DNA of 64,000 bases from Candidatus Babeliales bacterium (GTDB lineage Bacteria; Babelota; Babeliae; Babelales; JBFXEV01), in contig JBFXEV010000001.1 in NCBI GenBank assembly GCA_050179755.1, forward strand, positions 457,994 to 521,993, in the 5' to 3' direction. Numbering within the stretch: the stretch's first letter is position 1; the number at the start of each line of letters is the position of its first letter. The position numbers were made by a program, and so were the translations under genes. Shown one piece after another: positions 12,244 to 44,962 of the stretch. Under the pieces are notes generated by a model, which saw only the letters and a program-made list of their open reading frames with translations, was not told the origin of the DNA and did no database searches.

Positions 12244-12345
12244 CAGCCTAACTAAACTCAAACAAAAATATCTATTGCTCTCACTATCTCTTTGCTATTA
12301 AACTAAGAGTAGTCTCCATAAAAATTGATCTATGATATGGTAACA

Positions 12346-13656: not shown

Positions 13657-13731
13657 ATATCTATTGCCCAAAACAGTATATTCATATTAAACTAGAAGCA
13701 ACAAAAAAACATATTAACTAAGGTAGATCAT

Positions 13732-15288
13732 ATGCTTAAAAAATACACTCAACTTAGCTTTTTAATCATTTTATTGTCTACACAATGTATTTATAGCATG
13801 GATCATGCAGCAACAGCTCCTGCCTCATCACAAACACTTGGTCAAAAACTCACTGCAATAACGCATGCTGCTCGAGCATCAAAAAGAACTCTCTGTGAAT
13901 CTGCCGGCATATCACAAAGGGAACGTACCCCCAATGAAAAGTCAGCACTAGCTCAAGCATTACTTGGCAAAAAACGTTGGTGGTACGAAACAACACGATT
14001 AGAGCACAGCGATTCTCCGCGCAAAATTAATTTTAATGCCTCAGGCACACGCATTGCGGCAGTAATAGACATCTCTGGCGATGATACAGACGATGAAACA
14101 CCTTCACCTCTTTGTGCATATCAGGGTTTGTCCTGGAACTTGGAAACAGAACAATTCAAACGAACTCAACCTCTGCAAGCAATGGGCCTTAACTCATCAG
14201 ATTTGCAGCAGGCAAACGCTCACGTGGTTATTGTAGATGATACTAACATATGCGTATTTGATAATGAGGGCATACTCTCTGCTGTAATGCCGCTTGTATA
14301 TGACAGTACAATCCATATAGTTGATCCGGATGAAACTATTGTGTTAAAGAATGAATGTCATAAAAAAGTCTGTGATGTTACCTTATATCCAAAACAACAC
14401 CTAGTAAGCCTAACCTTAAAAAAGGTAGGTGCTAGTTTATGGGATTATGCAAGCGGTAAAATGATCTTACATTTGCCCGGCGCGCATAAAATAGCATGTG
14501 ACCCCAAAGGCACTCTTATTGCAAGCATAGAAGATAATGCAAATCGCACGCGTGCAGCATATATACGCGATTACAATGGCACACTGCTGCATGCATTACA
14601 ACAATCTCCCGTGCATGGTGTAGATCGTAACGTATGGGACGTAGCTTTTAACCCTCACCAAAATATGATAGCCACTGCATATTCTGAGGGCGCGTATTTA
14701 TGGAATTATAAGGGTGAATTATTACGCACGTTAGTGCATTCAGCAGAGCCTCTTACGCACGTACTGTATGTAACCTTTAACCCCCAAGGTACCTTGTTAT
14801 GCACCTCAGCCGCGGATGGAACTGTGTGCTTATGGCACTGCCACCTAGGCGATAAATTGCATACGTTCTATAACGATTTAAGTCTCTGTGCTCCAGCATT
14901 TGCCCCGCAAGGGCATACGATCGCCACTGTATCTGGTGCCTATGTGCGTTTATGGCAACAATATGAACAACCCACGCTTGAGCAAGTTTTACTCTATAAA
15001 GTAATTCAACAATGGCTAATATCAGATCAAGCTGAAAAAGAGGCTACAAAATTACAACAAAATCCAGATATAGATCTACCAGCATGGCTTGCCGCTCATT
15101 GCAATTTGCATGAACATGAAGTGCGCCGCACATGGCACACACTGCCTGATAAAGTGCGTAAATCTCTTTTTATGACCATAACTGATCTGGCTGGATTTGG
15201 AAAAAAAAGTATGTATCAAGAAGTTAAGGACGCTGAAACGAGGAAGTGGCTAGAGTTCCTTTTTAAAATAGATGCGGATGATGATTAA
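13732..15288 (+). CDS. Secreted WD40-repeat protein (tandem paralog 4)
   Basis: VAFNP, TSAADGTVCLW; signal peptide nearly identical to paralog 2. Confidence 0.9.
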   Translation: MLKKYTQLSFLIILLSTQCIYSMDHAATAPASSQTLGQKLTAITHAARASKRTLCESAGISQRERTPNEKSALAQALLGKKRWWYETTRLEHSDSPRKINFNASGTRIAAVIDISGDDTDDETPSPLCAYQGLSWNLETEQFKRTQPLQAMGLNSSDLQQANAHVVIVDDTNICVFDNEGILSAVMPLVYDSTIHIVDPDETIVLKNECHKKVCDVTLYPKQHLVSLTLKKVGASLWDYASGKMILHLPGAHKIACDPKGTLIASIEDNANRTRAAYIRDYNGTLLHALQQSPVHGVDRNVWDVAFNPHQNMIATAYSEGAYLWNYKGELLRTLVHSAEPLTHVLYVTFNPQGTLLCTSAADGTVCLWHCHLGDKLHTFYNDLSLCAPAFAPQGHTIATVSGAYVRLWQQYEQPTLEQVLLYKVIQQWLISDQAEKEATKLQQNPDIDLPAWLAAHCNLHEHEVRRTWHTLPDKVRKSLFMTITDLAGFGKKSMYQEVKDAETRKWLEFLFKIDADDD

Positions 15289-15417: not shown

Positions 15418-17979
15418 ATGAACAACGAACAATTTACCAATTCAGCGCAAGAGCTGATCCAGCAAAGCGCAAGCCTTGCACAGCAACTTAATAATCCCAC
15501 CATTCAACCACTCCACACATTGGCAGTAGGGCTTGAAAATTCATTTTGCAAACCGTTCTTTGCCATGCTCAATATCCCACTCGATCAATTGGGCGATTTA
15601 GTATCAGACGAGTTATATAAGTTACCGCAAGTCAAAGGTGGCAAAGTAGGCATGGATTATGCCATGCAAGATTTTTTGACTGAGCTTAAAAAAGAAGCTG
15701 ATCAGCTGGGTGATGCGTATATCAGTTTGGAGCACTTTTTACTCGGGTGGGCGCAGACAAATCATCTGCCTGCAAGCATTAGAAAGTTCTTTAAAGATCA
15801 CAGCTTTACCAAAAATAAAATTGTTTCTTACATGCAAACGCTGCGTAAAGGCAAAACGGTGCAAGATAAATCAGCAGAGCAACAATATGAGGTACTCAAA
15901 AAATATTGCCAAAATATCACGCAACTTGCACGTGAAGGCAAATTAGACCCTGTTATTGGGCGGCATGAAGAAATTCGTAGAGTAATACAAATTTTATCAC
16001 GCAGAACCAAAAACAATCCCGTGCTTATTGGTCAGCCAGGCGTTGGGAAAACTGCCATTGTAGAAGGCATTGCGCAGCGCATTGTAAATAATGACGTGCC
16101 CGAAGGTTTGCAAAATAAAGAAATTTACGCACTTGATTTAGGCCTATTAATTGCTGGCACCAAATATCAAGGTGAATTTGAAGAACGCTTAAAAGGTATT
16201 TTAAAAGCTGTAGAAGAAGATCCTGATCATATTATTTTATTTATTGATGAACTCCACATGCTCATTGGCGCAGGCGCCTCTGGCTCTGGCGGCATGGATG
16301 CAAGCAATTTACTCAAACCAGCACTTGCGCGTGGCACGCTCCATTGCATTGGCGCAACCACACTGGCCGAATACAAAAAATATATAGAAAAAGATGCAGC
16401 CCTTGAGCGCAGATTCCAAAAAGTGCTTGTTGAAGAACCCACCGAAGATGATGCTATTTCCATTTTACGTGGGCTTAAAGAGCGCTATGAATTGCACCAC
16501 GGTATCCGCATTAAAGACCAAGCAATTATTGACGCAGTGCGATTATCTCACAAATATATTCCTGATCGCTTTTTACCTGATAAAGCAATTGATTTAATTG
16601 ATGAAGCAGCTGCTATGGTCAAAATGTCAATTGACTCGTATCCGCCCGAAATTGATCAACTTGACCGCAAAATCCGCCAACTTGAAATTGAAAAAGTTGC
16701 ACTTTCAAAAGAAAAAAATGGTCAAGCCAAAACGCGCCTTGAAGCGCTTGAAAAAGAACTTGCCGATCTTAAAGAAAAACATGCAAACTTGCTCAATCAA
16801 TGGAAGTCAGAGAAAGCACCGCTTGAAAATATTAATAAACTTAAAGAACAAATTGAACAAGCTAATAATGAGTTTGCACGTGCCGAGCGCCAAGGCGATT
16901 ATGCAAAAGCTTCTGAAATTAAATATGGCAAATTGGTCGATTTAGAAAACAAGTTGGCAACCGAGCAAAAAAAGCTTGGCAAACTAGAAATGCAACTCAT
17001 TAAAGAAGAAGTTGACGAGCGTGATATTGCAAAAGTACTTGCCCGCTGGACAGGCATTCCTGCAGAAAAATTGCAAAGCGATGAAACCAAAAAATTGCTC
17101 ACTATGGATACAACACTTAAAGAACGCGTGATTGGCCAAGATGAGGCAATTGATGCTATAACGCACGCAATTCAAATGCACCGCACCGGGCTTACCGACC
17201 CTAATCGCCCTATTGGTTCATTTTTATTTTTAGGACCAACCGGTGTTGGTAAAACTGAAGTTGCAAAAGCTTTGGCAGGTTTTTTGTTTAATGATGATAA
17301 ACGGCTCATTCGCATTGATATGTCTGAATATATGGAAAAACACTCAGTCGCTCGTTTAATCGGCGCGCCTCCAGGATATGTGGGGTATGAAGAAGGTGGG
17401 CAATTGACCGAGCAAGTGCGCAGACACCCCTATTCTGTGGTTTTGTTTGATGAAATTGAAAAAGCACATCCTGACGTGTTTAACATCTTTTTGCAAATTC
17501 TTGATGAAGGCCATTTAACCGATAGCCAAGGAAGAACCGTTTCGTTTAAAAATTGCATTATTATTATGACCTCTAATATCGGTTCAGATATTATTCTTAA
17601 AGCAGATAAAATTGATGATAAAGTAAAGAATCAAATCGAGAAATTGCTCCAAGCGCATTTTAGACCAGAGTTTTTAAATCGCATTGATGCCATTTGCTTC
17701 TTTACACGTTTATCTGAAAAAGATGTAGAAGAGATTGCTGAGCTACAATTGAATGAACTAAAGAAACGCCTTGCGTTACAAGATGTAGATCTTACCTACG
17801 ATGCTAAAGTGATCAAAAAAGTTGCAGAGGTTGGCTATGTGCCAGAATTTGGCGCCCGTCCGCTCAAGCGCGCAGTGCAGCAGTATGTGATGGTGCCGCT
17901 TTCACAGTATTTGCTCAAGAATCCGGGGACTAAGAAAGTGGTTTTGAGTGTTAAAGGTGGTGAGATTACAATAGCCTAA
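15418..17979 (+). CDS. clpB: ClpB disaggregase
   Basis: Clp N domain, NBD1 (GQPGVGKT, IDELH), long coiled-coil middle domain, NBD2 (GPTGVGKTE, GYVGYEEGG, GARPLKR). Confidence 0.96.
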   Translation: MNNEQFTNSAQELIQQSASLAQQLNNPTIQPLHTLAVGLENSFCKPFFAMLNIPLDQLGDLVSDELYKLPQVKGGKVGMDYAMQDFLTELKKEADQLGDAYISLEHFLLGWAQTNHLPASIRKFFKDHSFTKNKIVSYMQTLRKGKTVQDKSAEQQYEVLKKYCQNITQLAREGKLDPVIGRHEEIRRVIQILSRRTKNNPVLIGQPGVGKTAIVEGIAQRIVNNDVPEGLQNKEIYALDLGLLIAGTKYQGEFEERLKGILKAVEEDPDHIILFIDELHMLIGAGASGSGGMDASNLLKPALARGTLHCIGATTLAEYKKYIEKDAALERRFQKVLVEEPTEDDAISILRGLKERYELHHGIRIKDQAIIDAVRLSHKYIPDRFLPDKAIDLIDEAAAMVKMSIDSYPPEIDQLDRKIRQLEIEKVALSKEKNGQAKTRLEALEKELADLKEKHANLLNQWKSEKAPLENINKLKEQIEQANNEFARAERQGDYAKASEIKYGKLVDLENKLATEQKKLGKLEMQLIKEEVDERDIAKVLARWTGIPAEKLQSDETKKLLTMDTTLKERVIGQDEAIDAITHAIQMHRTGLTDPNRPIGSFLFLGPTGVGKTEVAKALAGFLFNDDKRLIRIDMSEYMEKHSVARLIGAPPGYVGYEEGGQLTEQVRRHPYSVVLFDEIEKAHPDVFNIFLQILDEGHLTDSQGRTVSFKNCIIIMTSNIGSDIILKADKIDDKVKNQIEKLLQAHFRPEFLNRIDAICFFTRLSEKDVEEIAELQLNELKKRLALQDVDLTYDAKVIKKVAEVGYVPEFGARPLKRAVQQYVMVPLSQYLLKNPGTKKVVLSVKGGEITIA

Positions 17980-19052: not shown

Positions 19053-20165
19053 TTAACCGTAAAGATCTTCGGCATGAAATTGCACAACTTGCTCTTTAGC
19101 CTTTTTATCAAGTTCGCCCGTATATGGTAATTTCTTGATTACTCTATTGATGCTTTGCCTAATTTCTTGTTCAAGCTCTTGCGGTGATGCGCCAGGCAAA
19201 TAAAGCTTTGCAAGAGCAAGGCGTTCACGCACTATTGCAGGAATAAGCTCTTTGGCGATAAGTAAACGAATATCTTTAGGAAGAGCAATCTCAGCCCCTG
19301 ATCTTGTGGCGCCGATAATTGTTGGTATGATATGCTGCACCTGTTGTGGTGATACAGAAGTAATAAATGCCCTTACAACTCTTAATGCTCTTGCAACTCT
19401 TTCTGGTCCTTTTTCCAGAACTTCCATCATCTGTTTTGCTGTTTCATGTTTGTGTAACGCTAGTGCAAATGGCGTAGTTCTGAACTTATCTAGCGCATTT
19501 CCATCGGCGCCAGCTTCAATAAGAGTCACTGCAACAGCAGCATTGCCAACGTTATGCAACGGAGTTTGCCCTACACTATTTCGAGCATTTATATCTATTC
19601 CCTTCTTTAAAAGCAACATGGTCGCTTGAGAGCGGCCGGTTTGTGCTGCATAATGCAATGCAGTATTACCTTCTTTATCCTTTGCCAAGTAATTTGCTCC
19701 TGCTTTGATAAGCAATTCTAATGATAATGTATTATTGGTACGTGCAGGGCCTGCTGCTTTTAATAATGGTGTTTCATCAAATTCATTTACAGCATCTATA
19801 TTGCTGGGACGAGCCTCAAGGATCATCTTAACTGCTTGCGCATTACCACTCTCAACAGCCGCATGCAACGGCGTATTTAATAGATCATCTTTAGCATTCA
19901 CATCAGCACCAGCATTAAGTAAAGCCTGCATGGCGCCAAGATCTGCGCGCAGAGCAGCCAAAATGAGTGGCGTGCTTCTTGCTGGGCCTTCTGGCGCCTC
20001 AATATCTGCGCCATCATTAATAAGTTGCGCAACGGACTTAGATCGATCAATCTGTAAGATTGCTTTTATAAGCCGGTCATCACCTCTTTTTGATCCTTTC
20101 ATTGCATCTAACCTGCCCAATGGCAGACAAAGAAAAAACAAACTTACTAAAATATATTTTTTCAT
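19053..20165 (-). CDS. Secreted ankyrin-repeat protein with LPKDIRLLI tail
   Basis: About six ankyrin repeats (STPLILAA, NTPLHAA, ETPLLKAA, NTALHYAA, QTPLH); signal LDA-MK. Confidence 0.92.
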   Translation of the reverse strand: MKKYILVSLFFLCLPLGRLDAMKGSKRGDDRLIKAILQIDRSKSVAQLINDGADIEAPEGPARSTPLILAALRADLGAMQALLNAGADVNAKDDLLNTPLHAAVESGNAQAVKMILEARPSNIDAVNEFDETPLLKAAGPARTNNTLSLELLIKAGANYLAKDKEGNTALHYAAQTGRSQATMLLLKKGIDINARNSVGQTPLHNVGNAAVAVTLIEAGADGNALDKFRTTPFALALHKHETAKQMMEVLEKGPERVARALRVVRAFITSVSPQQVQHIIPTIIGATRSGAEIALPKDIRLLIAKELIPAIVRERLALAKLYLPGASPQELEQEIRQSINRVIKKLPYTGELDKKAKEQVVQFHAEDLYG

Positions 20166-20472
20166 CAGTAATCTTTCATTGATATTCATACCCAAGTTTT
20201 CATTGAGTACTATTACTCAATTTCAGCATAACACTTTTTTAAGCGCAATATCAATGGTTTGTTGCAGGTTGAATATCCTACCCAGTTTGTAGCCTAACCT
20301 GCAAATAACGAGCAAATGCATAAATAGAAGCAAAACCCTACTGTTTGCCCAATCATTTTTGATATACTAAAAGTGTAGGAATATGCTCCAGAAGCAGATT
20401 TTAAAGGCTACCTGGAATACAAAAAAGCCGCATTAGTTTATTAAAAAATTAATGCGGCCACAAGGAGTAATC

Positions 20473-20874
20473 ATGCCATACAAATCAAATAAACAATTAC
20501 CAAAGGGTGTAAAAGGCCACACGCCAAAACACGCACAAGATACGTACCGTAAAGCATTTAACAGTGCTTTAAAGGAATATGGTCAAGAAGACCGTGCAGC
20601 AAAAGTCGCATGGGCTGCAGTAAAAAAAGCTGGCTATAAAAAATCCGCTTCAACTGGTGAATGGTCTAAAGCCAAGACGAAAAAAGCGTCTTCTAAAACC
20701 ACAACACACAAAAAGAAGACAACTGCAAAGAAGCACACTACTGCCAAAAGAACAACTGCAAAACGTGCCACAACTAAACGTTCTCCGGCAAAACATGCAA
20801 CAAGCAAAAAGCGTGTTACCAAGCGCACTGCAACAAAAAAACGCGCCGTAAAGCGCGCTCCATCGAGACGATAA
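20473..20874 (+). CDS. chaB: ChaB-family protein with histone H1-like Lys/Arg/Thr/Ala-rich tail
   Basis: MPYKS..LP..V....P.HAQD.YRKAFNSA..Y.....A.KVAWAAVKK is the ChaB signature, followed by TTAKK/TTAKR/ATTKR repeats. AAGGAG RBS. Confidence 0.85.
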   Translation: MPYKSNKQLPKGVKGHTPKHAQDTYRKAFNSALKEYGQEDRAAKVAWAAVKKAGYKKSASTGEWSKAKTKKASSKTTTHKKKTTAKKHTTAKRTTAKRATTKRSPAKHATSKKRVTKRTATKKRAVKRAPSRR

Positions 20875-20880
20875 CCTAGT

Positions 20881-20920
20881 AAAAAGAAAGGCGCTCTAAA
20901 AATGGGCGCCTTTCTTTTTA
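20881..20920. terminator. Bidirectional intrinsic terminator
   Basis: AAAAAGAAAGGCGC-loop-GCGCCTTTCTTTTT between convergent genes. Confidence 0.85.
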
Positions 20921-20921: not shown

Positions 20922-22616
20922 TTAATCTTTTGTTTCAGTTTTACTATAATCAAATTTATCATACGCGGGCGGACCGTAAAGATTGTAAGCCTCTTCACTA
21001 TCAAACCACTTATGCGCAGCATCTTTTAAATAGAGAATTGCTGCAAGCGCCTTATAATAATCCACATTAGATAGATAAGGATCAGGCCGACTGCCACGTA
21101 AATTTGGCTGTAAATGGGCTGCAATGGTTTTTGCCGCAGAACTATCATCAATTGATGAAGCAAGATCAGCCTCATATTCTGCAAACTTATGATACGTTTG
21201 TATTGAAGCTGATTTTAATACTTTATCAACTGAATGACTCTTTTGGCTGTACAAATAGTCAGAAATACAAGCTTGCACTATAGTATGATACGAGCACATA
21301 TGTCCGCCAAGCTCATGCTCTAACGTAGCAAGAATACTATCGGCGGTGGCGGTTCTAAGCCATTCTGCATTTAAAGACAATTTATATATCAATTTATTTG
21401 CCACATGCCCTACACTCACTGAAGCTATTGCCGTTGGGTCTTTCTCCCTTTTAACAACTATTTTTTCCAGAATACCTCTTTTTTTACAAATCGCAGCTAT
21501 TGCTTCTTTAACGTCATCACGCACATCTATCAAATAAATAAATTGAAGTGCTGATGAATCAATACGTAAAAACGCTTGCTTGTGAACTTCTATTGCGTGC
21601 TCTATAGCAACCCAATCTTGTGCAGTAAGTTGAAATTCTTTTGAAATTGCTTGATAGACAAGCGCTCTTTCTTGCTCTATATGTTCATGCAGAGCCTTTA
21701 CCATTTCGCCTTTATTGTAATTATAACGATCTTTAAGATATACCGTCACAATAAATTTTTGTATATGGATAGGGCATGTTTTTAGATATACAAAAAGCTG
21801 GGTTGCATTATACGTTCTAATTGCTCTATTAATACCTAAGTGCTGCGCCAGTTGCTCAGTAGCTTTTGCGCAATAAGCAGGCTTTAAACAATCAACCGCT
21901 TGCGTAAATTGATCTACCGCTTCTGGTTTGAGCGTAGCTTGACTCAGTACAGAAGCTCTTTGGGATACAAAATGCTTATACTGTTTATTCAAGGCGATCG
22001 CAATAACCTCATGCGTTTCATCTTGCGCATCCCCTTTGAGAAGATAAGCAATTTGCTCAAGAGTAAACAACGTGATATTGCTCGCAAGCGCCTGTGCAAG
22101 AATGGTATGCGATTTGGCATCAGAAAGCTGCAGGGCTGTAACAATAACATCAACTGGATACTTTGTAATGCTCTGCGCCATACGTTGCGCTATAACCTGT
22201 TTATGTGCTTGCGTGCCATGTTGAAATACATCAAGCACTGCTTGCATATTGGTTATGTCAACTTTATCAATAGGTAGAGCATCACCCTCCTCCGCCAAGG
22301 CTCCGGCGGGCATGTCTGCTGATGTTTGATCTTGCGCAATGGCCAAACCAACGGCCAATGCACCAATTGGCAACGCATACTGAGTAGAAGATGAACTTTG
22401 AGATTCATTGTGCTCATAACTTTTACTGCCAAGCAGTAAACGCACGGGCGCTTGACTTTTTAGCTCTGCTAGCGGCTTTGCGCTGTGTTTTGCAACCACT
22501 GCAGTGCGCACTGGATGACCGCTTGAAAGCAACTGCTGTGTAGCTCGTCTCATCGCTTGTAGTGGCAAGCAAAAAGTTGCTAACGCTAAGAATAAAATTT
22601 TAAAATACATAATCAT
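20922..22616 (-). CDS. Secreted helical-repeat protein with C-terminal zinc-metalloprotease-like domain
   Basis: Signal LQA-MRR, hydrophobic segment, helical repeats, then LEHELGGH..AEYEAD (M48-like, with an extra residue in HExxH). Confidence 0.7.
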   Translation of the reverse strand: MIMYFKILFLALATFCLPLQAMRRATQQLLSSGHPVRTAVVAKHSAKPLAELKSQAPVRLLLGSKSYEHNESQSSSSTQYALPIGALAVGLAIAQDQTSADMPAGALAEEGDALPIDKVDITNMQAVLDVFQHGTQAHKQVIAQRMAQSITKYPVDVIVTALQLSDAKSHTILAQALASNITLFTLEQIAYLLKGDAQDETHEVIAIALNKQYKHFVSQRASVLSQATLKPEAVDQFTQAVDCLKPAYCAKATEQLAQHLGINRAIRTYNATQLFVYLKTCPIHIQKFIVTVYLKDRYNYNKGEMVKALHEHIEQERALVYQAISKEFQLTAQDWVAIEHAIEVHKQAFLRIDSSALQFIYLIDVRDDVKEAIAAICKKRGILEKIVVKREKDPTAIASVSVGHVANKLIYKLSLNAEWLRTATADSILATLEHELGGHMCSYHTIVQACISDYLYSQKSHSVDKVLKSASIQTYHKFAEYEADLASSIDDSSAAKTIAAHLQPNLRGSRPDPYLSNVDYYKALAAILYLKDAAHKWFDSEEAYNLYGPPAYDKFDYSKTETKD

Positions 22617-22628
22617 AATAACCCTCGT

Positions 22629-22709
22629 GTAGCCCGAATTGGTTTACAAAACTTGTAAACTGAGACGGGATTTAGCCCGAATTAATTTATGTAAATAAAT
22701 TGAGACAGG
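22629..22709. repeat. Two tandem REP-like palindromic units (43-bp period)
   Basis: TAGCCCGAATT-[inner palindrome]-GAGAC(G/A)GG twice; the inner stems differ in sequence but both pair. Confidence 0.8.
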
Positions 22710-22713
22710 TCCA

Positions 22714-25317
22714 TTAGTTTTTCTTCTTCATTAAAACATCTAAAACCGGCTTATAGACTTTATAACTTTGCGCAGGTGTCATCTTACCTTCAAATGATTT
22801 AGGATTCTCTTGTGCAATGCGTGCAATAAGCGCTTCTAATTTAGCAATAAGTGCATCAAGCTTGCTTTGATCAAAATCGCCATAAGCACGAATTTCTGCC
22901 CCCTGCTCACGCAATGTATGCACCGTATCTGGAGTCATGACCACGCAGAATTCTTGCATATCTGAGTTATCAAAAGTCTCAGGTGCAGTTTTTAATGTGT
23001 TAACAATAGTTGCAACATTATCAGTTTCTTCACCGCTGATCTTAAGTTTTTTCTTCATACCACCAGGGAATGCCAAATATACATGCTCATTCAAATTCTC
23101 ATGTGGTATAGTCAGTTGTAAAAGCACGCTTTTTGGCACAATTTCTTTAAATTCTTTTTCTAACTGCTTAAATTCAACATTATATTTACTAAAGAGCGCC
23201 TGATCACCAAATTTATCCAAAATGGTTTGAGTAGTTATTGCTGGATCCCCCACATTATGATTCTTTAAAAAATAGAATATTGAACAACTACCAGTATTAG
23301 TTAAGTTGCCAAAGAGTGCATAATTGGCAAACAGGAGATAAGGCCGCAGTTCATCTTGGCCATACTTTCGGCCTTTTGCAAGCAATTTTGTTTTGGTGCT
23401 TTGACCATAAGCTTGTAATACCGCATTGGAAAATTCAGTTTGTTCATCTGGAAACCGAGTAAAGAGATAATTGCCTACTTTTTGTTGGTATTTTTGCTCC
23501 CATAACTTGGTATAGAGTAATTCTAGCCAATATACCGGGCTACGTTGTGAATGATAAAAGACCGCTGATTTATCAGAAATTGCGTGCTCATGACTTAGTG
23601 CTTCTTGAAAGGCTTCTTTATATTTTGGATTAGTAAGCAGTTTGCTTACATATTCCCATGCTTTTCTGGTATTTTTTCTAAGATGTGCTACAGATTGACT
23701 ATCAATTTTTTGCTCACCGATAAAATCATTTGTTTTCTTTTCTATTGCACGTAAAATTAGTTCTATATAGCCGTCACCCTTGAATTGCAGCCTAGTTAAT
23801 ATAAGATCTATATCGTACTTTTCAATATTATCTACAACAGCTTGGGCAATTTGCAATCTTCTATCTTGTTCCGAAATGCTTTCAAATAATCTTACAACAT
23901 CCCCTGAACTATATCCTCCCATATTCCTTATTATTGCTGCAAAAAGAAGTTCATTCGCACGCCCACTTACTCTGTCTAAAAAATTAATTGCATCTTGTGC
24001 ATTGTATTTTTCTATATTCTGTATAATTACTCCAAAAACAAGATCCCTTATCTGATTATTTTCATGTGTGCCACCGCGTTCAAACCTGTTTAAAACATGC
24101 CATAAAAGTTCGCTTTCATACATAAGAAAATCATCTTCAAAACGCAGCATAAGAGCATCTACTATCATTGCTCCATATTTTTTAGAAAGTTGCATACACC
24201 GTATTAAAACCCGTTGACCTATACGTACGTCTTCTACATATTTCTTAATTTCAGCACATATCGGTGGCACAATAGCCTGCAACACAAGCCCTGCACTTTC
24301 ACCCGAAACGTCTAAAATTTGTTTTTGGTGAGCCATGCTCATCTTCTCAATAATCCCTTTATGGATCATCGCACTAACAAGATCTTTACGAGCAGCCTCG
24401 TTTGTACGTTTTAAAATTCTTAAAATAAATGCTAAAGATAATTGCTCGCTATTGTTTATAATAGCCGAACAAACAACGGCTCTATTTTCAGCGCTGATCG
24501 TAGAATTATAGTTATGTAAAAGAAATACAATTTCATCTATACGATAATGCATGATATCATTGGCAATAACTCGAATGAGTATACTTTGATATTTTTGATT
24601 TAAGACGCTTATAAGAAAAGCAAAATTACCCCGGTTATTTTTATAATGAGGGCTACCAAAAAATTTGCCATAAACGGTATTTCCTATAAGGCTGTCATAA
24701 TGCTTTGCCAGTGCATACGCAAATAGTTCATGAGTTTCTTCTTGATTGTCGCGATACAAGAACCCAGTAATTTGATCGAATGAAAAACTCCTAATATTTT
24801 TAATGAGAGCATTTAATACTATGCGGTGCGGCCTGCCACTTGTTTTACGCAACATCTTAATGATGTCCCAATCTGAATAAGAAGTGATTTTTTTAGCTAT
24901 CTTTTGAGCAAGCTCTCGCTTTTCATCTTCAGTTCCATTTTTGAATATTTCAAGAACAGCCGTTATATCAAATATATCGAGCGTATCAACAATTGATCTG
25001 CTTTCTTCTAAGGCATGCTCTTGCGCCATTGCCAAACCAACAGCAACCGCACCAATAGATGGTATGGCGTATGGATTAAATGCATGGGTGTGCGATTTAT
25101 CTTGAGAGTGGCCTTGTTCATACTTATTGCTACCAGAGAGTGGGCGAATAGGAACTTGGCTTTTTATATCTATTGTTGGTTTTGCAAGATGCTTTGCTAC
25201 CATTGGAGTGCGCACAGGCTTGCTTAAAAGCTGCTGTGTGGCACGCTTCATGGCATGGATAGGAGCAATACCACTAAATAGTGCTAAAAAAAGGGTAATT
25301 TGTTTGAATACGGTCAT
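22714..25317 (-). CDS. Large secreted helical-repeat protein with C-terminal globular (possibly ADP-ribosyltransferase-like) domain
   Basis: N-terminus paralogous to 20922..22616; repeats of type IIxNIExYxxxDxxxxL; C-terminal domain shared with 26086..27534. Confidence 0.75.
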   Translation of the reverse strand: MTVFKQITLFLALFSGIAPIHAMKRATQQLLSKPVRTPMVAKHLAKPTIDIKSQVPIRPLSGSNKYEQGHSQDKSHTHAFNPYAIPSIGAVAVGLAMAQEHALEESRSIVDTLDIFDITAVLEIFKNGTEDEKRELAQKIAKKITSYSDWDIIKMLRKTSGRPHRIVLNALIKNIRSFSFDQITGFLYRDNQEETHELFAYALAKHYDSLIGNTVYGKFFGSPHYKNNRGNFAFLISVLNQKYQSILIRVIANDIMHYRIDEIVFLLHNYNSTISAENRAVVCSAIINNSEQLSLAFILRILKRTNEAARKDLVSAMIHKGIIEKMSMAHQKQILDVSGESAGLVLQAIVPPICAEIKKYVEDVRIGQRVLIRCMQLSKKYGAMIVDALMLRFEDDFLMYESELLWHVLNRFERGGTHENNQIRDLVFGVIIQNIEKYNAQDAINFLDRVSGRANELLFAAIIRNMGGYSSGDVVRLFESISEQDRRLQIAQAVVDNIEKYDIDLILTRLQFKGDGYIELILRAIEKKTNDFIGEQKIDSQSVAHLRKNTRKAWEYVSKLLTNPKYKEAFQEALSHEHAISDKSAVFYHSQRSPVYWLELLYTKLWEQKYQQKVGNYLFTRFPDEQTEFSNAVLQAYGQSTKTKLLAKGRKYGQDELRPYLLFANYALFGNLTNTGSCSIFYFLKNHNVGDPAITTQTILDKFGDQALFSKYNVEFKQLEKEFKEIVPKSVLLQLTIPHENLNEHVYLAFPGGMKKKLKISGEETDNVATIVNTLKTAPETFDNSDMQEFCVVMTPDTVHTLREQGAEIRAYGDFDQSKLDALIAKLEALIARIAQENPKSFEGKMTPAQSYKVYKPVLDVLMKKKN

Positions 25318-25552
25318 TATAACCTCCAGGTTAAACTGCTATATTATTATTTCTAATTGTAAATATTTATACGAAAAAGTCAAGTTTTATGAATTTGAAC
25401 CTGACCAAACCTGCCTTTTTAGAAGAACGCCTTCCCCCCATATAGCATTGAGAAAAGTAAGAGAGAAAGAGAGTATGCTTGACCAGACCTCCCTTAGACG
25501 CATGAACTCACACATGATATACTGCCTATAGATCATTTGCTTCAAGGATTTT

Positions 25553-26089
25553 ATGCACACTCATAACAAAATTGTTTCTTTTTTCTGCTTTCTCATTTTT
25601 TACTCTGCAGTATCCACTGCTATGCACACAACTACTTCACAAAAACACACGCATTTAAGCCGCGTACTATCTAAAGAACTTGATCATACCATGGCACAGT
25701 TATTTGGTGTTACCGAAAATACATCCCACGATATATGTTTAGAAGTGGCGTTATTGAAAGATTCTACGCTTACCCTTATTTTGCAAGAAGCTCAAAAAAC
25801 AACATATACATATAATGCGCAATGCATAGAAGCTGCACGCAAAAGAACTCGCCGTCATCTTACCCATGCCATTGGCAACTTTGCACGCACCATCTATGTT
25901 GCGCATTATGCAAACCCCAATCATCACCAGTTGACAAGCACATCCATTGCAAATGCGCTTTGTATCAAGATACGAGCAGATGCATTAGTTGCCTATGAAC
26001 TATCAACACTAAAATCACCGCTAGCAAGTTTTACGGGCCAAGCATTGCGCGAACGCATAGAAAATTTGCTTGACCCGTTTAAATACTAA
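25553..26089 (+). CDS. Secreted hypothetical protein, same family as 29857 and 30416 genes
   Basis: Signal STA-MH; LF..LEV..LKD.TL and FTGQALRERI blocks. Confidence 0.75.
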   Translation: MHTHNKIVSFFCFLIFYSAVSTAMHTTTSQKHTHLSRVLSKELDHTMAQLFGVTENTSHDICLEVALLKDSTLTLILQEAQKTTYTYNAQCIEAARKRTRRHLTHAIGNFARTIYVAHYANPNHHQLTSTSIANALCIKIRADALVAYELSTLKSPLASFTGQALRERIENLLDPFKY

Positions 26090-27534
26090 ACAGAATCTTT
26101 TTTCTGCTCTAACGTGTAATCCTTCACCTCTTGCGCTATTTCATACATGCGCTGCGTCATTGCCCGCAACTTCTCAGGTTTGCCAAGCAGATAAAACCGC
26201 ATAGATACGTTTTCTGGCTTTGCAAGTTCAGGGTGCAAAAGCACGCGCGCTTGATGTGGCCAGAGCACATTTTGTGTTTCAGGATCCTCAAGCCAACCCA
26301 ATGCTTCTGGATTTCTATGCGTGCGTATACCAAGCGGCTCTGATAAATAGCACCATTTTTTTGCCAGTTCCTCTTTGATGCTTAATTGCAGCAACCCAGC
26401 ACTTGCAAGCGATTCCATTGCATTAAGTTCTGCACGATATTTTTCATATAATGCTTGCGCACCATATTCTTTAAACGTATCATGCATAAATGCATTATGC
26501 GCATCACCCTTAAAGCGTTTATCAAGCAACGCAGGAAATGAAGTAACTAACCGTGGATTTTTTACTAAATCCCATGCAACTTGGCCTGCAAGCAACAAGG
26601 CAACCAGCGGCCCGCCAGCATAACCGGCTATTGCTACATCAAGCGCCTGATAACCCCACGATGAAGGCCGTGTTACAAACTCAGCGCTTGAGTCTTTATA
26701 ACCATCGCGCCACCAGCAATTTTGCCCAAAAAAACCAAGGTTGGTTGAAAGCAAATGCTTTTGCGCAGGCCCTTTATCAAAAAGTACTGTATATTCACCT
26801 GTTGGCATAGATCCGCACCCGGGTATGCGCTGCATCACTTGCTCATGCGGTGCTTTATCTATATTGGCATCATAATATGCATGCACATCGTGATATTCAC
26901 CAAGATCGGCAACGGTTGAATCATCACGCAACTTTACAAAATGTTCACGCTTTTCTTGAGCGCGCAGCACTTCATCAAATATCGTGCGCAATACTATGCT
27001 TGCACCCTGACTGGTGCCATGCACCAAGGTAACGTTACCTGCTAAGCGCTGATCATGCTCCTCGATTGAAAGTTCTTGCACAAGCGCGGTGAGCCGATTA
27101 CGAGATGTGGGTAAAAAGTTCCAAAAATGGGCAAACAACGTGCCATCCACACGATCAACATATTTGTGACTAAACTTAGCCTTTAACTGCGCAAGTGGTG
27201 CATACGTATAGTACCAATCTTGATCAAATTGGCGCTTGGTTACCGAATGTGTTAACGCCTCCATATCACGCTGATCACTCAGCACGGGAGCCAGCGTTTT
27301 TAAACTTAATGGCGTGCTTACGTCTACAAAACGCAGCTTTTTTTCATGCACATGATCATATACCGAGCCTGCAGTATACAAACCCGCGGTAGCAACAATG
27401 CATTTAGTAAGCGCAGGTTTGCTTTTTAGCGTTTCAAAAAATTGAGTACGAGCACCTTTCATAGCCAAAACAGATGGCATAAATAATGCACTTGCCAGCA
27501 TACAAAATGCGGCAAAAAGAGTATTGGTATTCAT
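26086..27534 (-). CDS. Secreted protein sharing the C-terminal domain of 22714..25317
   Basis: Signal VLA-MK; TLVHGTS..HLLSTNLGFFG..YGAQALYEKY..LLQLSI..YLSEPLG aligns with VFYHSQ..YLLFANYALFG..FGDQALFSKY..LLQLTI..YLAFPGG. Confidence 0.75.
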   Translation of the reverse strand: MNTNTLFAAFCMLASALFMPSVLAMKGARTQFFETLKSKPALTKCIVATAGLYTAGSVYDHVHEKKLRFVDVSTPLSLKTLAPVLSDQRDMEALTHSVTKRQFDQDWYYTYAPLAQLKAKFSHKYVDRVDGTLFAHFWNFLPTSRNRLTALVQELSIEEHDQRLAGNVTLVHGTSQGASIVLRTIFDEVLRAQEKREHFVKLRDDSTVADLGEYHDVHAYYDANIDKAPHEQVMQRIPGCGSMPTGEYTVLFDKGPAQKHLLSTNLGFFGQNCWWRDGYKDSSAEFVTRPSSWGYQALDVAIAGYAGGPLVALLLAGQVAWDLVKNPRLVTSFPALLDKRFKGDAHNAFMHDTFKEYGAQALYEKYRAELNAMESLASAGLLQLSIKEELAKKWCYLSEPLGIRTHRNPEALGWLEDPETQNVLWPHQARVLLHPELAKPENVSMRFYLLGKPEKLRAMTQRMYEIAQEVKDYTLEQKKDSV

Positions 27535-27895: not shown

Positions 27896-28354
27896 TTAAT
27901 TTGCAGGCCATTCATAGATACCTTTTTGCCCAAATACTTCATTAATTTCTTCAATTAAACCTTGAGCATTTGCTTTAATAATCGTAATCACAGACTCAAC
28001 ATCACCGTCATTATAGGTAATTTCCCAACGTATAATGCCAGTTCGCTTATCAGCTGTCTCAAGATATTCATGCACTTTAATTTCTTGAATACCAAACTCT
28101 GTTTTAACCGCATTCATTTGCTTAAGCGTCTCAGCCCAATTAGTAGAAACTTCTCGCAAGTTAACCACTTTTTTAGCTGTTGGCGTAAAAAGAGTTTTTA
28201 TCTCTTTAGAAAGATCAGCATCTTGTGGAGCTGTAAATACACGTAAAAACTCAATATACTTTTCACCAACTGATTTTTCTACAGCCATGTTATATCCTAA
28301 ACAATTAAGAGAACTAACGCACATAATTAACATCATAACATACGTAAACATCAC
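27896..28354 (-). CDS. Secreted protein, probable NTF2/SnoaL-like fold
   Basis: Signal peptide; helix followed by beta meander (LFTP..GIIRWEITY..VITII..GLIEEINEVF). Confidence 0.6.
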   Translation of the reverse strand: MMFTYVMMLIMCVSSLNCLGYNMAVEKSVGEKYIEFLRVFTAPQDADLSKEIKTLFTPTAKKVVNLREVSTNWAETLKQMNAVKTEFGIQEIKVHEYLETADKRTGIIRWEITYNDGDVESVITIIKANAQGLIEEINEVFGQKGIYEWPAN

Positions 28355-28861: not shown

Positions 28862-29188
28862 TTACTTATATCCTTTGAAAAGCTCTTGTGGCTCTTTTCC
28901 TATTAAAGCAAAAAGATGAGCCAAACTTGAAAGCGTTAAATTTGCTTCTCCTCTTTGTATTTTTGCAACATGCGTTGGGCTGGAATCTAAGCGACGGACC
29001 AACTCATTAAAGCCAATGTTGTTTTTCTCCATATAATCGGTTAAAGCATCTGAAATAAGATTTTGAATAAACCTCAAAATCGCAACTTCTCGTTTCGCTT
29101 GCCGCGTTATTTGAGCTATTTCTTTCTTATTAAGTCGCTTTTCTAAATATTTCTCAAAATTGGTTTTTTTCATTATCATTCTCCTCAC
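28862..29188 (-). CDS. XRE/HTH antitoxin (HigA-like)
   Basis: ELVRRLDSSPTHVAKIQRGEANLTLSSL HTH; directly downstream of a RelE-type gene. Confidence 0.8.
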   Translation of the reverse strand: MRRMIMKKTNFEKYLEKRLNKKEIAQITRQAKREVAILRFIQNLISDALTDYMEKNNIGFNELVRRLDSSPTHVAKIQRGEANLTLSSLAHLFALIGKEPQELFKGYK

Positions 29189-29523
29189 ACTTCTAGCAAA
29201 CGATCTCTTGCTATCCGAATATCTCTTTCTTGACTACTTTTATCTCCTGCTGCAAGCACAATTATAATGCAGTTCCCTTGAAAGCCATAATACATTCTAT
29301 AACCAAATTTATACTCTCTTAACTCAAAAAGACCTTGGCCTAACGCCTTACTATGCGGCAATCTTAATGTGTTACCTGCAAAACCAAGCATACGCAGCTC
29401 TTTCGAGATAGCTTTAAATTGCTCTTTAGTTAATTTATCAAGCCATTTTTCAATGGGGCTTTGACTACCAGGAGTCTCCCAAAATTTTACCTGCCATTTC
29501 TTCACTCTATACCTTCGCATCAA
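29185..29523 (-). CDS. RelE/HigB (Gp49-like) toxin
   Basis: SPIEKWLDKL..GNTLRLPHSKALGQGLFELR..YRMYYGF..IIVLAAGDKSSQERDI. Confidence 0.88.
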   Translation of the reverse strand: MMRRYRVKKWQVKFWETPGSQSPIEKWLDKLTKEQFKAISKELRMLGFAGNTLRLPHSKALGQGLFELREYKFGYRMYYGFQGNCIIIVLAAGDKSSQERDIRIARDRLLEV

Positions 29524-29759: not shown

Positions 29760-29782
29760 GCATTAAACCTTATTTTTGGATC

Positions 29783-29833
29783 CGACTTCGCTAAAGCTAT
29801 GTCGTGATTCTAATTACGCCAAAGCTCCAGAGG
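29783..29833. repeat. Degenerate REP-like palindromes (CTTCGCTAAAGCTA family)
   Basis: CGACTTCGCTAAAGCTATGTCG and TACGCCAAAGCT match the units at 30567-30628. Confidence 0.6.
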
Positions 29834-29856
29834 AGCGACGGCAAATGGAGGATCTC

Positions 29857-30381
29857 ATGAAAAATAAATCAATTTTAATGCTCTCTTTTTTAATACTCCC
29901 ATTGTCCCAAAATGCTGCGTGCTCCCATGCAAAACAGAGTGTGGTGCGTATAACAAACCGCGAAGCATCACTCTTTGACCCAGAACGGTTAGGCCATTTT
30001 GTTGATGCATTGTTTGCATTTTATGAGCAAGATTATACAACACAACTTGAGATTAATGCTATTAAAGCAACCGCTCTTCATAATGCGCGTAAGCAATACC
30101 AATACATTCAAAGACAGGGGTGGAAAATATGCGTCTGGCCACAAGATCTGTTAGAAGATTATCTTGCCGATGCTCTAGCACAACATGCTCGCCAATGCTA
30201 TGAGCACAAAATCAGGATGTATAAACCCTCTCATTATGTTGATAGAGCAGATGAGGTGGAAACAAGCTTTAAAGAGCAAGCTCGTGAAAAGATTAACTCG
30301 GGCAGGTATGGTTGCCTTCGTTTTTTTGTGGGTGAAAGCCTTGAAAAACAAATAGCGCCTTTTTGCACTATAGTTAAGTAA
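29857..30381 (+). CDS. Secreted hypothetical protein (paralog of the next gene's middle domain)
   Basis: GGAGG RBS + MKNKSILMLS, identical to the next gene; TQLEINAIK and FFVGESLE blocks. Confidence 0.8.
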   Translation: MKNKSILMLSFLILPLSQNAACSHAKQSVVRITNREASLFDPERLGHFVDALFAFYEQDYTTQLEINAIKATALHNARKQYQYIQRQGWKICVWPQDLLEDYLADALAQHARQCYEHKIRMYKPSHYVDRADEVETSFKEQAREKINSGRYGCLRFFVGESLEKQIAPFCTIVK

Positions 30382-30415
30382 ATATTGAAAACTAAATCTT
30401 AGTTTGGAGGATCTC

Positions 30416-31552
30416 ATGAAAAACAAATCTATATTAATGCTTTCTTTATGTGTACTCACCTTTGCAACGCACAACATGCAGGCACGCGATAATAGTTGGT
30501 TTGAATACTTTGTAAGTATTTTTTGGAATACTAATAAAGATGCGGAACAGCCAAAACTAGAACCCAGCCTACGCCAAGGCGCCCAGCCTTCGCATAAAGC
30601 TACGGCGGATATAACCGGCGGTCAGGCCGGCCAACAAAATATGCCAAAGCCGTCGGCACCCCCGCTTGAACAACCGCAACAATACAATGCAAAAGCACCT
30701 ACTGCTAAATCAGCGGGCATCACAAATGCTGAGTATAATACTGTGCGGTATCAGATTGAATCTATTATTGATGGGTTATTTGCGACAAAAGAACAAGAAC
30801 ATGCCACTCAGCTTGAAATTCAAGCGATAAAAGATAAAACGTTGCATTGTATTGGTGAGCGCATACGCAACATTGCCACGTTGCCAGAGTTTCGCCAGGC
30901 AGCAAATCACTATCTGACTGAATATCTTACAAAAACTATTGCTTATAATGCACGGCTTTTGTATCAACAAAAAGCAAATAAGCTTGCTGTGCAATTAGTA
31001 CAGAGTCAGCCACTTGCCGAGCATTTAGAAAAAGAAATCAAAACACACGCACTCAAAGCAATCAACTTAAATGAGCCCGGTGTGCTTGCATTCTTTGTAG
31101 GCAAAGCCTTGGATGAACGCGTTGCAGCACAAATAAAACGGGACTTCGCTCCAATCCTTCGACAAGCTCAGGATGAGCGACAAGTAAATAAAGCAAGCAA
31201 ACAGCCTCAATCAATCGTCCAACACCCTAAGCCTAGTGCGCCGCCGGCAGAGCATCATACAGCGATGCGCCCTGAAATCTATGAAGTGTATGTGCATTCA
31301 AATGCAGCACGGTATGAAGAATCTATAGCAAGAATACAACAAGGCAAAGCATTTCGTGATGAGCCTGAATGTGTTATGTGCTTTGAAGAATTTGGCGGCT
31401 CAAGAAAGCGCGTAACGCTTGTATGCGGGCATACTATATGCCCTGCGTGCTTGCAACTTCATTTGCAAAAAAATGATACGTGCCCAACTTGCGCTGAACC
31501 AATTGCGCCAGATGAGTTCCCGGCAGCATATTTACATAAATACAACAATTAA
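30416..31552 (+). CDS. Secreted RING-finger (C3HC4) protein with two PSAP motifs; putative E3 ligase effector
   Basis: CVMC..CGHTICPAC..CPTC; PKPSAPP occurs twice. Confidence 0.88.
   Translation: MKNKSILMLSLCVLTFATHNMQARDNSWFEYFVSIFWNTNKDAEQPKLEPSLRQGAQPSHKATADITGGQAGQQNMPKPSAPPLEQPQQYNAKAPTAKSAGITNAEYNTVRYQIESIIDGLFATKEQEHATQLEIQAIKDKTLHCIGERIRNIATLPEFRQAANHYLTEYLTKTIAYNARLLYQQKANKLAVQLVQSQPLAEHLEKEIKTHALKAINLNEPGVLAFFVGKALDERVAAQIKRDFAPILRQAQDERQVNKASKQPQSIVQHPKPSAPPAEHHTAMRPEIYEVYVHSNAARYEESIARIQQGKAFRDEPECVMCFEEFGGSRKRVTLVCGHTICPACLQLHLQKNDTCPTCAEPIAPDEFPAAYLHKYNN
30567..30628. repeat. Nested REP/RPE-like palindromes inside the RING gene
   Basis: GCCTACGCCAAGGC[..GCCTTCGCATAAAGCTACGGCGGAT..]CCGGCGGTCAGGCC. 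Confidence 0.7.
31146..31180. repeat. REP/RPE-like palindrome (CCTTCGACAAGCTCAGGATGAGCG) inside the RING gene
   Basis: TCGCTC..ATCCT-TCGACAAGCTC-AGGAT-GAGCGA hairpin, encoding ILRQAQDER. Confidence 0.75.
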
Positions 31553-37223: not shown

Positions 37224-37925
37224 ATGGTGTGGTATATCATTTTTTTATGCATCGCAAGCAATGCACAGCAATGCATGGCAATGGAGCACTCTTGCTCGCA
37301 CGATAAAGCCAACATTGCTCAAAAAGAGCATCAAGCTTGCGCCAATGCTCTGGCGCGCAAACCAAAACCAACTAGAACTTTGGCCAAACCAAAAAAACAG
37401 CCTTTTAATGCTTCAGAACAAGATCCCAAAATACGCGTGGTAATTGAAATTTCAAGTATAGCAGACTATCAAAAAGGAGAAGTTGCCAATACTACTGCAA
37501 TCGATTTTTCAAGTAATAACCTTAGCGAGCTACCGCAGTTACATGGTTATACAAAGCTACAAGAAATTGACTGCTCTGGTAATGAATTCCGTATCGTGCC
37601 ACCACCTTTGTTTCAATGCTTGGGGTTACAGCGAATTTTTTTACAGCATAATCTTATAGAAATCATTCCAAGTGCAATACATATGTTCGGTCACCTTACC
37701 GTGCTTAATCTTGCCCATAATTATCTGAGAGAGTTACCAAATGAGCTTAGTAGATTACAAAAACTAAGAGATTTGAATGTCTCGCACAATGCAATAACTT
37801 CAATTCCTGCCTCTATTGCCCGTCTTGCGCAACTATTTCATTTTAATATCAAAAATAATCAGCTTACTCAAACTCTGGTTGACGCACTTAAACAAAAAAT
37901 GCCCAATACTACCATTACATGGTAA
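37224..37925 (+). CDS. Secreted leucine-rich-repeat protein
   Basis: 23-aa LxxLxLxxNxLxxLP repeats; signal CMA-ME. Confidence 0.9.
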   Translation: MVWYIIFLCIASNAQQCMAMEHSCSHDKANIAQKEHQACANALARKPKPTRTLAKPKKQPFNASEQDPKIRVVIEISSIADYQKGEVANTTAIDFSSNNLSELPQLHGYTKLQEIDCSGNEFRIVPPPLFQCLGLQRIFLQHNLIEIIPSAIHMFGHLTVLNLAHNYLRELPNELSRLQKLRDLNVSHNAITSIPASIARLAQLFHFNIKNNQLTQTLVDALKQKMPNTTITW

Positions 37926-40193: not shown

Positions 40194-40208
40194 ACGAATG
40201 AGCCAAAC

Positions 40209-44958: not shown

Positions 44959-44962
44959 TACT

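Follow-up and report, generated by a model that had tools for sequence, protein, structure and literature searches.

Dependentiae are widespread obligate parasites of protists, and to our knowledge almost none of their effectors has been characterised. The three genes described here, g1, g2 and g3, may have a bearing on the question of how, lacking type III and type IV systems, they deliver proteins into their hosts. The genes lie on the minus strand of a 64,000-nucleotide stretch of DNA (the window) from an intracellular Babeliales (Dependentiae) bacterium. For Chromulinavorax destructans, excerpts of the published account (PMC6561590) report that 44% of the coding sequences have signal peptides and that a host mitochondrion wraps around the bacterium. 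The M48 metallopeptidases are characterised, according to PMC7950410, by an HEXXH motif, a zinc-binding Glu about 60 residues further on and an HPX4R active-site plug.

The trio may encode Sec-exported, host-directed modular effectors, in which the Arg-rich N-terminus of g1 and g2 would serve as an organelle address, mitochondria being the leading candidate. Judged from the sequences, we regard this reading as possible rather than probable. The initial annotation of this DNA had ascribed to all three proteins a Sec signal, a mitochondrial-presequence-like segment and a hydrophobic anchor. The three minus-strand open reading frames (ORFs) lie exactly at the limits it had given them, and all the peptides it quoted were found verbatim.

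20922-22616, minus strand: g1, ORF of 564 amino acids (aa) with a leader, the N-terminal module and a putative divergent M48-like metallopeptidase domain
22714-25317, minus strand: g2, ORF of 867 aa with a leader, the N-terminal module, 31-aa repeats and a conserved C-terminal domain
26086-27534, minus strand: g3, ORF of 482 aa with a leader, a short basic stretch, a small patch and a domain of an unnamed family

The N-terminal module shared by g1 and g2

Residues 8-219 of g1 and 9-213 of g2 are 44% identical (95/217, E 6e-46), and the comparison of g1 with g3 revealed no shared region (best E 5.5). The g1 and g2 proteins carry one conserved N-terminal module of ~215 aa, which includes a folded helical domain. 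In this module, the leader is followed by Met, an acid-free basic segment, a polar linker (His, Asn, Glu and Tyr), a Gly/Ala-rich patch of ~15 aa, an acidic cluster and the helical domain. Below, hydropathy is given on the Kyte-Doolittle (KD) scale and model confidence as the predicted local distance difference test (pLDDT).

22554-22616, minus strand: Sec-type leader of g1 (aa 1-21, ending in LQA; KD ~2.0 in 15-residue windows; small residue at -1)
22467-22553, minus strand: junction Met and acid-free basic segment of g1 (aa 22-50; 29 aa, net charge +5, 3 R and 2 K; pLDDT <50)
22335-22379, minus strand: Gly/Ala-rich, weakly hydrophobic patch of g1 (aa 80-94; KD 1.99 over 15 residues and 1.27 in the best 19; low-confidence coil in AlphaFold)
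21957-22274, minus strand: helical domain of the g1 module (aa 115-220; pLDDT ~88-96, all-helical; 44% identical to g2)
25252-25317, minus strand: Sec-type leader of g2 (aa 1-22, ending in IHA)
25171-25251, minus strand: junction Met and acid-free basic segment of g2 (aa 23-49; 27 aa, net charge +6)
25024-25068, minus strand: Gly/Ala-rich patch of g2 (aa 84-98; KD 1.93 over 15 residues and 1.33 in the best 19)

In the AlphaFold model of g1, built from a seven-sequence alignment, aa 25-113 are disordered (pLDDT <50), and the regions of aa 115-220 and 230-550 have pLDDT values of ~90. A word-indexed protein search with g1 returned nothing beyond g1 itself, and the relatives came from an exhaustive phmmer search, which yielded 21 proteins at E<=1e-3, g1 included. 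Five of these (P0021-P0025) match the C-terminal domain of g1 plus, in part, the module; one (P0038) matches the C-terminal domain only; and 14 proteins of 277-850 aa match only the N-terminal module and have other C-termini. At least three C-terminal types are observed behind the module in the relatives, namely the g1 type, the g2 type and a short type of ~380-420 aa. When the module alignment was compared with genome contigs, 86 pattern matches were obtained, none of which was confirmed.

The module was scanned in 21 family members that have an N-terminus. A leader, a small residue, Met and an acid-free basic run (13-54 aa, net charge +3 to +10) follow one another in 20 of them, and the remaining member has Ile-Pro in place of Met after the leader. 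All 20 of those members have a Gly/Ala-rich patch (KD 0.95-1.99) and then 2-6 acidic residues within the next 15. P86, A92 and G94 of the g2 patch are invariant in the g2-family alignment. The acid-free composition is unremarkable by itself, because 51 ORFs of the window (D+E 11.0%) contain 106 acid-free runs of at least 25 aa. The conserved layout of the module exceeds chance, and it is the constant position of the acid-free run and its preference for Arg that carry the signal, rather than the run as such.

In the first 35 mature residues of these 21 proteins, Arg accounts for 12.0%, versus 3.2% over their remaining length. For Lys, the respective values are 5.4% and 7.7%, and for Asp and Glu together 2.6% and 12.4%; the segment also has higher shares of Ala, Ser and Thr. 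The R:K counts are 88:40 in this segment and 374:891 in the rest (odds ratio 5.2), and the shift is observed in 19 of the 21 members. Because the proteome of the window is Lys-biased (R share 0.39), Arg in the module segment is specifically selected. The basic segment of the g1/g2 family has a composition of the mitochondrial-presequence type, which is the strongest support for reading it as a presequence, and its action as a mitochondrial targeting signal is plausible. The stretch rich in Arg, Lys, Ser, Thr and Ala and devoid of acids over ~26-29 aa, as initially described, is present in g1 (29 aa) and g2 (27 aa) and absent from g3, where Glu is the tenth residue and the run is 9 aa long. A Tat signal, in which an RR motif is directly followed by an h-region and an AxA site, was considered and rejected: RR occurs only in g1, P0030 and P0031, RxR or KR being the usual form in the family, and 30-60 residues separate it from the hydrophobic patch that comes next.

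The patch was compared with membrane-spanning segments, a mean KD of at least 1.6 over ~19 residues being taken as the transmembrane threshold. The stop-transfer anchor of the initial annotation had to be given up, as the best 19-residue window reaches 1.6 in only one of the 21 module members (20 fail) and in none of the 10 g3-family members, versus 1.6-2.8 in the true membrane proteins of the window. For insertion of the patch, a position-independent sum of Hessa scale values gives +4.8 to +13.2 kcal/mol. Being too weakly hydrophobic, the patch would not be held in the bacterial membrane, and it more probably serves to bind membranes at their surface or interface than to span them as a stop-transfer anchor. 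A bilobed hydrophobic domain of the chlamydial Inc type was also rejected, the two segments being too short and 20-60 residues apart.

C-terminal domains of the trio and the g3 family

The C-terminal domain of g1 contains two conserved motifs of metallopeptidase character.

20967-21929, minus strand: C-terminal domain of g1, putative Zn-metallopeptidase (aa 230-550; pLDDT ~85-97)
21285-21320, minus strand: g1 motif EHELGGHMCSYH (HExxxHxxxxH; aa 433-444), invariant in seven of seven family members
21165-21179, minus strand: g1 motif EYEAD, candidate third metal ligand (aa 480-484)

All seven members of the g1 family have HExxxHxxxxH and none has HExxH. The EY[EQ]AD motif is also present in all seven, 46-76 residues past the first His of the His motif. 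HPx4R occurs in one member, the most distant P0038, and g1 is without it. The look-alikes of the domain in the Atlas are M48 and M56 proteins, with feature scores of 0.89-0.91 and template modelling (TM) scores of 0.42-0.46. The best PDB fold match of the g1 model in Foldseek is Ste24p (E 3.2e-3, probability 0.92, TM 0.16-0.20), and the Pfam M48 model (PF01435) matches one of the seven members at E 0.007, below the cut-off. PDB sequence searches with g1 and with the g1-family alignment gave no meaningful match. The only Pfam/NCBIfam match of g1, to IL6 (E 3e-4, 20.9 bits versus a cut-off of 27), was taken as chance.

Like M48 proteins such as BepA, HtpX and Ste24, in so far as they are covered by the excerpts of PMC7950410, the g1 domain has a His-Glu...His helix motif and a downstream invariant Glu, and HPx4R of P0038 is spaced as in the BepA described there. 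The g1 family differs in that all seven members have HExxxH, with one extra residue, and HPx4R is missing in g1 and in six of the seven. From its motifs and model, the domain looks like a divergent M48-like metallopeptidase, not a member of the M48 family.

Eight homologues of g2 (42-65% identity) and 10 of g3 (39-55% identity) were found. Pfam and NCBIfam gave no match for g2, g3 or either set of homologues.

23746-24069, minus strand: 31-aa helical repeats of g2 in three clear copies (motif starts at aa 430, 461 and 493; spacing 31-32 by regular expression)
22717-23700, minus strand: conserved C-terminal domain of g2 (aa 540-867), the densest block of invariant columns in the g2-family alignment, with no Pfam/NCBIfam match
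22825-23271, minus strand: part of the g2 C-terminal domain homologous to g3 (aa 683-831; hhalign)
26134-26526, minus strand: part of g3 homologous to the g2 C-terminal domain (aa 337-467; hhalign)
27463-27534, minus strand: Sec-type leader of g3 (aa 1-24, ending in VLA)
27358-27462, minus strand: junction Met and basic stretch (aa 25-44) and 'GLYxAG' patch (aa 45-59) of g3; best 19-residue KD 1.05

The number of 31-aa repeats before the g2-type C-terminus is variable, with seven consecutive copies in the relative P0036. Evidence for homology between g2 and g3 is provided by a 54-aa BLASTP match (E 6e-5), by the comparison of the g3-family profile with g2 alone (probability 24.8%, E 7.8e-4) and by hhalign of the two families (probability 83.6%, E 8.2e-6, 122 columns, residues 683-831 of g2 and 337-467 of g3). 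The C-terminal domains of g2 and g3 share a region of ~130-150 aa that belongs to an unnamed family. The domain shuffling proposed initially is confirmed, since g1 and g2 have a common N-terminus (44% identity) and different C-termini, and g2 and g3 have a common C-terminal region. The extents needed correction: the part common to g1 and g2 is the ~215-aa module with its folded domain, and the demonstrable homology of g2 and g3 is confined to the final 130-150 residues.

All 10 g3-family members having an N-terminus show a small residue at -1 and then Met, and L52 and D60 of g3 are nearly invariant in the family. The acid-free run from Met comprises 9 aa in g3, Glu being the tenth residue. In five of 10 members, including g3, this run has at most nine residues and the first acidic residue is at position 2-10. 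The initial view of g3 as the third member of one design does not stand, as g3 is not homologous to the g1/g2 module and has only a short basic stretch (acid-free run of 9 aa). It appears to be a separate family, exported likewise and with no convincing presequence.

The AlphaFold model of g3 has a pLDDT of 70.7 and a predicted TM score of 0.74. A search of the PDB with this model found no fold relative (best E 0.14), and one of the Atlas found nothing usable. Its only significant fold relatives are uncharacterised proteins of two metagenomic giant viruses, Mimivirus LCMiAC02 (E 8.4e-6, TM 0.44/0.45) and Hokovirus (E 1.6e-5), which may point to an exchange of genes between parasites of protists. 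2-Oxoglutarate oxygenase folds recur among the insignificant matches of the g3 model, and nothing is built on them here, since the g2 family does not conserve the candidate His. PDB sequence searches with the g2- and g3-family alignments gave no meaningful match save a weak one to PUM-HD, and among the non-significant matches of the PDB sequence searches were Lpg0189 and NttE, type II substrates of Legionella (E 0.12-0.19).

Leaders followed by Met and the neighbourhood of the trio

Signal peptides typically have a short basic n-region, an h-region of about 10-15 hydrophobic residues and small residues at -1 (and -3). Those of the trio are predicted from form and hydropathy, by a basic n-region, an h-region of 12-15 residues and a small residue at -1. 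Met stands directly after the leader in 21 of 29 leader-bearing ORFs of the window. With a background Met content of 1.97%, this excess has P<=2e-14 even if a tolerance of six positions is allowed. The list of 29 was curated by hand: of 34 flagged hydrophobic N-termini, eight that were polytopic, internal or spurious were left out, three sub-threshold leaders were added, and two ambiguous ORFs were counted among the eight without Met. Of the 21 junctions, 17 have A, S, G, C or T at -1, three have N and one has P. The residue at +2 is mostly Asp or Glu; Lys or Arg is found there in the trio and in the ORFs 19053-20195 and 7598-9133. Examples of leaders followed by Met are 2417-3724, 4392-4937, 6924-7505, 7598-9133, 9260-15288 and 19053-20195, as well as 25553-26089, 27896-28354, 30404-31552, 37224-37925 and 50596-52083. 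Housekeeping exported proteins such as secretins have a leader without a following Met. The feature is kept in relatives from other genomes; in the locus L001 of another Babeliales genome, introduced below, it is found, by eye, in at most one of nine leaders.

Shine-Dalgarno-like runs are present upstream of the 5' starts (GAGGG 8 nt upstream of the g1 ATG, and GGAGG upstream of g2) and absent at the junction ATGs. The leaders are therefore translated, and the inner Met is an unlikely start; translation initiation at the junction Met was rejected on this ground. As to the Met-initiated mature N-terminus of the initial annotation, Met does stand directly after the leader, and this is not special to the trio, being seen in 21 of the 29 ORFs. 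The feature could be a fossil start codon under selection, or reflect a preference of signal peptidase or of a second sorting step, or a need for an N-terminal Met in the host.

The assignment of the source to Babeliales is illustrated by ClpB (15418-17979), which is 68% identical to a protein of a Candidatus Babeliales metagenome-assembled genome (MAG); the other 79 loci kept have at most 58%. The sole Babeliales locus fetched via ClpB (L001) is not syntenic with the window and contains unrelated leader-bearing families. One of them is a tandem family (L001 14795-19369, minus strand) ending in a Cys-rich motif that by eye is a MYND-type zinc finger, and several collagen-like proteins with GxT repeats are also encoded in this related MAG.

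Within the window, leader-bearing proteins with ankyrin, RING, LRR and WD40 domains are neighbours of the trio. Four tandem paralogues of 443-518 aa (9260-10699, 10792-12243, 12325-13656 and 13732-15288, plus strand) form WD40 beta-propellers (Pfam WD40, E 1e-12 to 2e-19); each has Met and then D or E directly after the leader, and in three of them the junction is followed by a basic stretch 'PQTLGQKL...AR'. Two adjacent leader-bearing paralogues (29776-30381 and 30404-31552, plus strand) have the same start (MKNKSILMLS...), and the second has a C-terminal RING finger (zf-RING_2, E 1.4e-8). Neither Pfam nor NCBIfam gave a match for the ORF between g2 and g3, listed below. The convergent end of g1 is separated by a hairpin with a 17-bp stem (20880-20920) from a gene for a ChaB-domain protein (20452-20874, plus strand; Pfam E 8.6e-18) with a histone-H1-like tail of 70 aa rich in Lys, Thr and Ala. 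On the other side of the trio, two overlapping small ORFs (28862-29188 and 29185-29523, minus strand) have the layout of a toxin-antitoxin pair, with a Gp49/HigB-like match (PF05973, E 1.2e-10) and a weak Cro/C1-type helix-turn-helix match (E 9.6e-4).

25553-26089, plus strand: ORF of 178 aa between g2 and g3 with its own leader and Met (STA|MHTT), converging on g3 with a 4-nt overlap at the g3 end
39039-47497, plus strand: type II secretion/pilus-like genes in one row (GspC-like, two GspD-like secretins, PilM/GspL-like and a small membrane ORF; NCBIfam matches)

The secretion genes seen in the window are type II-like ones only, with none of type III or type IV, and the row at 39039-47497 is a candidate for a second export step. 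According to excerpts of PMC4776705, two gspD copies, the arrangement found here, are present in all TM6 genomes studied there.

Delivery, rival explanations and known systems

In the scenario that we prefer, the leader would direct export by way of SecYEG, with cleavage by signal peptidase I just before Met. Vesicles, or the type II-like machinery whose genes lie 11 kb away, would then release the proteins from the cell. Once in the cytosol of the host, g1/g2-family proteins might use their exposed Arg-rich N-terminus as an organelle address, with mitochondria as the first candidate, and bring the solenoid and the enzyme domain to the target organelle. The high share of signal peptides and the mitochondrial remodelling reported for one Dependentiae isolate in the excerpts of PMC6561590 fit this role of g1 and g2. 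A more specific form of the same idea is a cross-kingdom bipartite address, in which signal peptidase would expose a mitochondrial presequence starting at the conserved Met, and the shuffled cassette would deliver varied enzymes, including an M48-like protease, to host mitochondria; on the sequence evidence, we find it doubtful.

Several points weigh against an organelle address. The pooled R:K statistics, including the Fisher p of 7e-18 for the shift, are inflated because the family members are related, and the least Arg-biased members are g1 (3R:3K) and g2 (2R:5K) themselves. The amphipathicity of the module segments, with maximum hydrophobic moments of 0.49-0.81, is modestly above that of shuffled sequences (mean z +0.87, above 0 in 18 of 21 members, shuffle fraction <=0.05 in three of 21). 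The motif of the processing peptidase, R-x-[YFL]-[SAT] with Arg at -2 or -3, occurs in seven of 21 members versus 4.6 expected from shuffles. The weak hydrophobicity of the patch also speaks against a classical mitochondrial stop-transfer helix. Of the match to presequences noted initially, the composition and the conserved layout remain; the amphipathicity is modest, the processing motif is not enriched and the stop-transfer anchor is too weak. A Met after the leader, being a habit of the exported proteins of this lineage, is no evidence for the mitochondrial idea. The M48 assignment of the g1 C-terminal domain comes from leads (Foldseek E 3.2e-3 with TM 0.16-0.20, and a sub-threshold Pfam match). 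Basic residues right after the cleavage site hinder Sec export in E. coli, so that this lineage would have to tolerate them or its leader would have to work differently. Finally, type II-secreted proteins are folded, which is unfavourable for mitochondrial import.

Arg-specific enrichment is also typical of lipid-binding and cell-penetrating peptides, and the module could be a general device for binding or crossing host membranes. Its Arg stretch would bind acidic lipids and the fusion-peptide-like patch would insert shallowly, with no organelle specificity; the effector would then be tethered to the host membrane around the bacterium or helped across the vacuolar membrane. The patch suits such a role, being Gly/Ala-rich, conserved (P86, A92 and G94 invariant), too short and weak for a transmembrane helix and always followed by the acidic cluster, as does the presence in the window of type II-like secretion genes and of none of type III or IV. 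However, the module is confined to this family, and ~19 other leader-bearing effector-like proteins of the window lack it, so that it cannot be the general route to the host cytosol. A stretch of 13-54 residues that is free of acids and enriched in Ala, Ser and Thr is also more in keeping with an import signal than with a short motif for lipid binding, and we consider such a device unlikely. The same patch would re-cross the membrane if the proteins were retained in the envelope, with the first segment as an uncleaved reverse anchor, the basic segment as a cytoplasmic loop kept there by the positive-inside rule and the C-terminal domains in the periplasm. The charge distribution agrees with this topology, the flank after the first hydrophobic segment having +3 to +10 versus ~+1 before it and the acidic cluster following the second patch, and so does the hindrance of E. 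coli Sec export by basic residues past a cleavage site. Yet the patch fails the 19-residue KD threshold in 20 of 21 members, whereas the membrane proteins of the window pass it, and the summed Hessa values are +4.8 to +13.2 kcal/mol. Retention is made quite unlikely also by the first segment, which has the form of a signal peptide (h-region of 12-15 residues, Pro at -5/-6, small residue at -1), and by the same form of leader in ~19 other window proteins without a second hydrophobic segment.

The basic segment may also carry no address at all and be a flexible spacer or pro-region that, for instance, keeps the enzyme inactive or aids a second export step. This would agree with its modelled disorder, with the abundance of acid-free runs (106 of at least 25 aa in 51 ORFs) and with the lack of enrichment of the processing motif. 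In a Lys-biased proteome such a spacer is expected to contain Lys, but 19 of 21 members show the opposite, a loss of Lys together with a nearly fourfold rise in Arg. The elements of the module, moreover, follow one another in the same order whichever of the three C-termini is attached, which renders a spacer rather improbable. Binding of host RNA through the Arg-rich motif and a PUF/ARM-like solenoid is suggested by the weak match of the g2-family profile to PUM-HD chains (E 1.3e-4) and by Pumilio domains in the Foldseek output for the g1 model (probability up to 0.99, E ~0.011). We consider it very improbable: the repeat period is 31 aa, not ~36 as in PUF proteins with their eight three-helix repeats (PF00806), none of the nine members scanned has a Pfam PUF match at E<=0.1, and all the Foldseek E values exceed 1e-3, alpha-solenoids readily matching each other.

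The N-terminal cassette, which is conserved and portable and resembles an organelle-import signal in composition, offers a handle on effector addressing in one lineage, and may bear on how mitochondrial association in Dependentiae arises. If the cross-kingdom bipartite address is true, the genome-wide rule of a Met after the leader would mark how this lineage in particular builds or sorts its exported effectors. The rule itself could improve effector prediction in these genomes. The locus also adds three unnamed families, one apparently a divergent metallopeptidase and another sharing its fold only with giant-virus proteins. Among the papers listed in a literature search, those mentioning Dependentiae or TM6 contained neither 'mitochondrial targeting' nor 'presequence', and none of the listed papers described such a presequence-like module, no search being aimed at the rule of a Met after the leader.

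The secretome of Chromulinavorax destructans resembles the present one in many ORFan and ankyrin proteins with signal peptides, an assumed Sec export and contact with the host mitochondrion; the excerpts of PMC6561590 differ in that they describe neither the g1/g2 module, nor the trio families, nor a rule of Met after the leader. Bacterial proteins with a eukaryotic organelle address embody the same idea, a Nocardia case combining a signal peptide with predicted mitochondrial targeting. These proteins are not known to be related in sequence to the trio and, as far as the excerpts of their accounts go, use other delivery systems or come from other phyla, whereas here an address-like segment is part of a shuffled Dependentiae cassette.

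Mitochondrial presequences are usually 15-60 aa long, net positive and Arg-rich, devoid of acidic residues and enriched in Ala, Leu, Ser and Thr. Like the matrix and bipartite presequences of mitochondrial proteins, the module segment is N-terminal in the presumed mature protein, 13-54 aa long, Arg-rich, acid-poor, enriched in Ala, Ser and Thr and disordered, with a hydrophobic element downstream. Unlike them, it stands behind a bacterial Sec-type leader, with modest amphipathicity, no enrichment of the processing motif and a weak hydrophobic element. Another parallel is provided by the bipartite topogenic signals of complex plastids, where an address that is likewise basic and poor in acids, and whose first residue is fixed, comes to lie at the N-terminus once the signal peptide has been removed. 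There, both steps take place in one eukaryotic cell; here, the first step would occur in the bacterium and the second in its host, and the fixed residue is Met.

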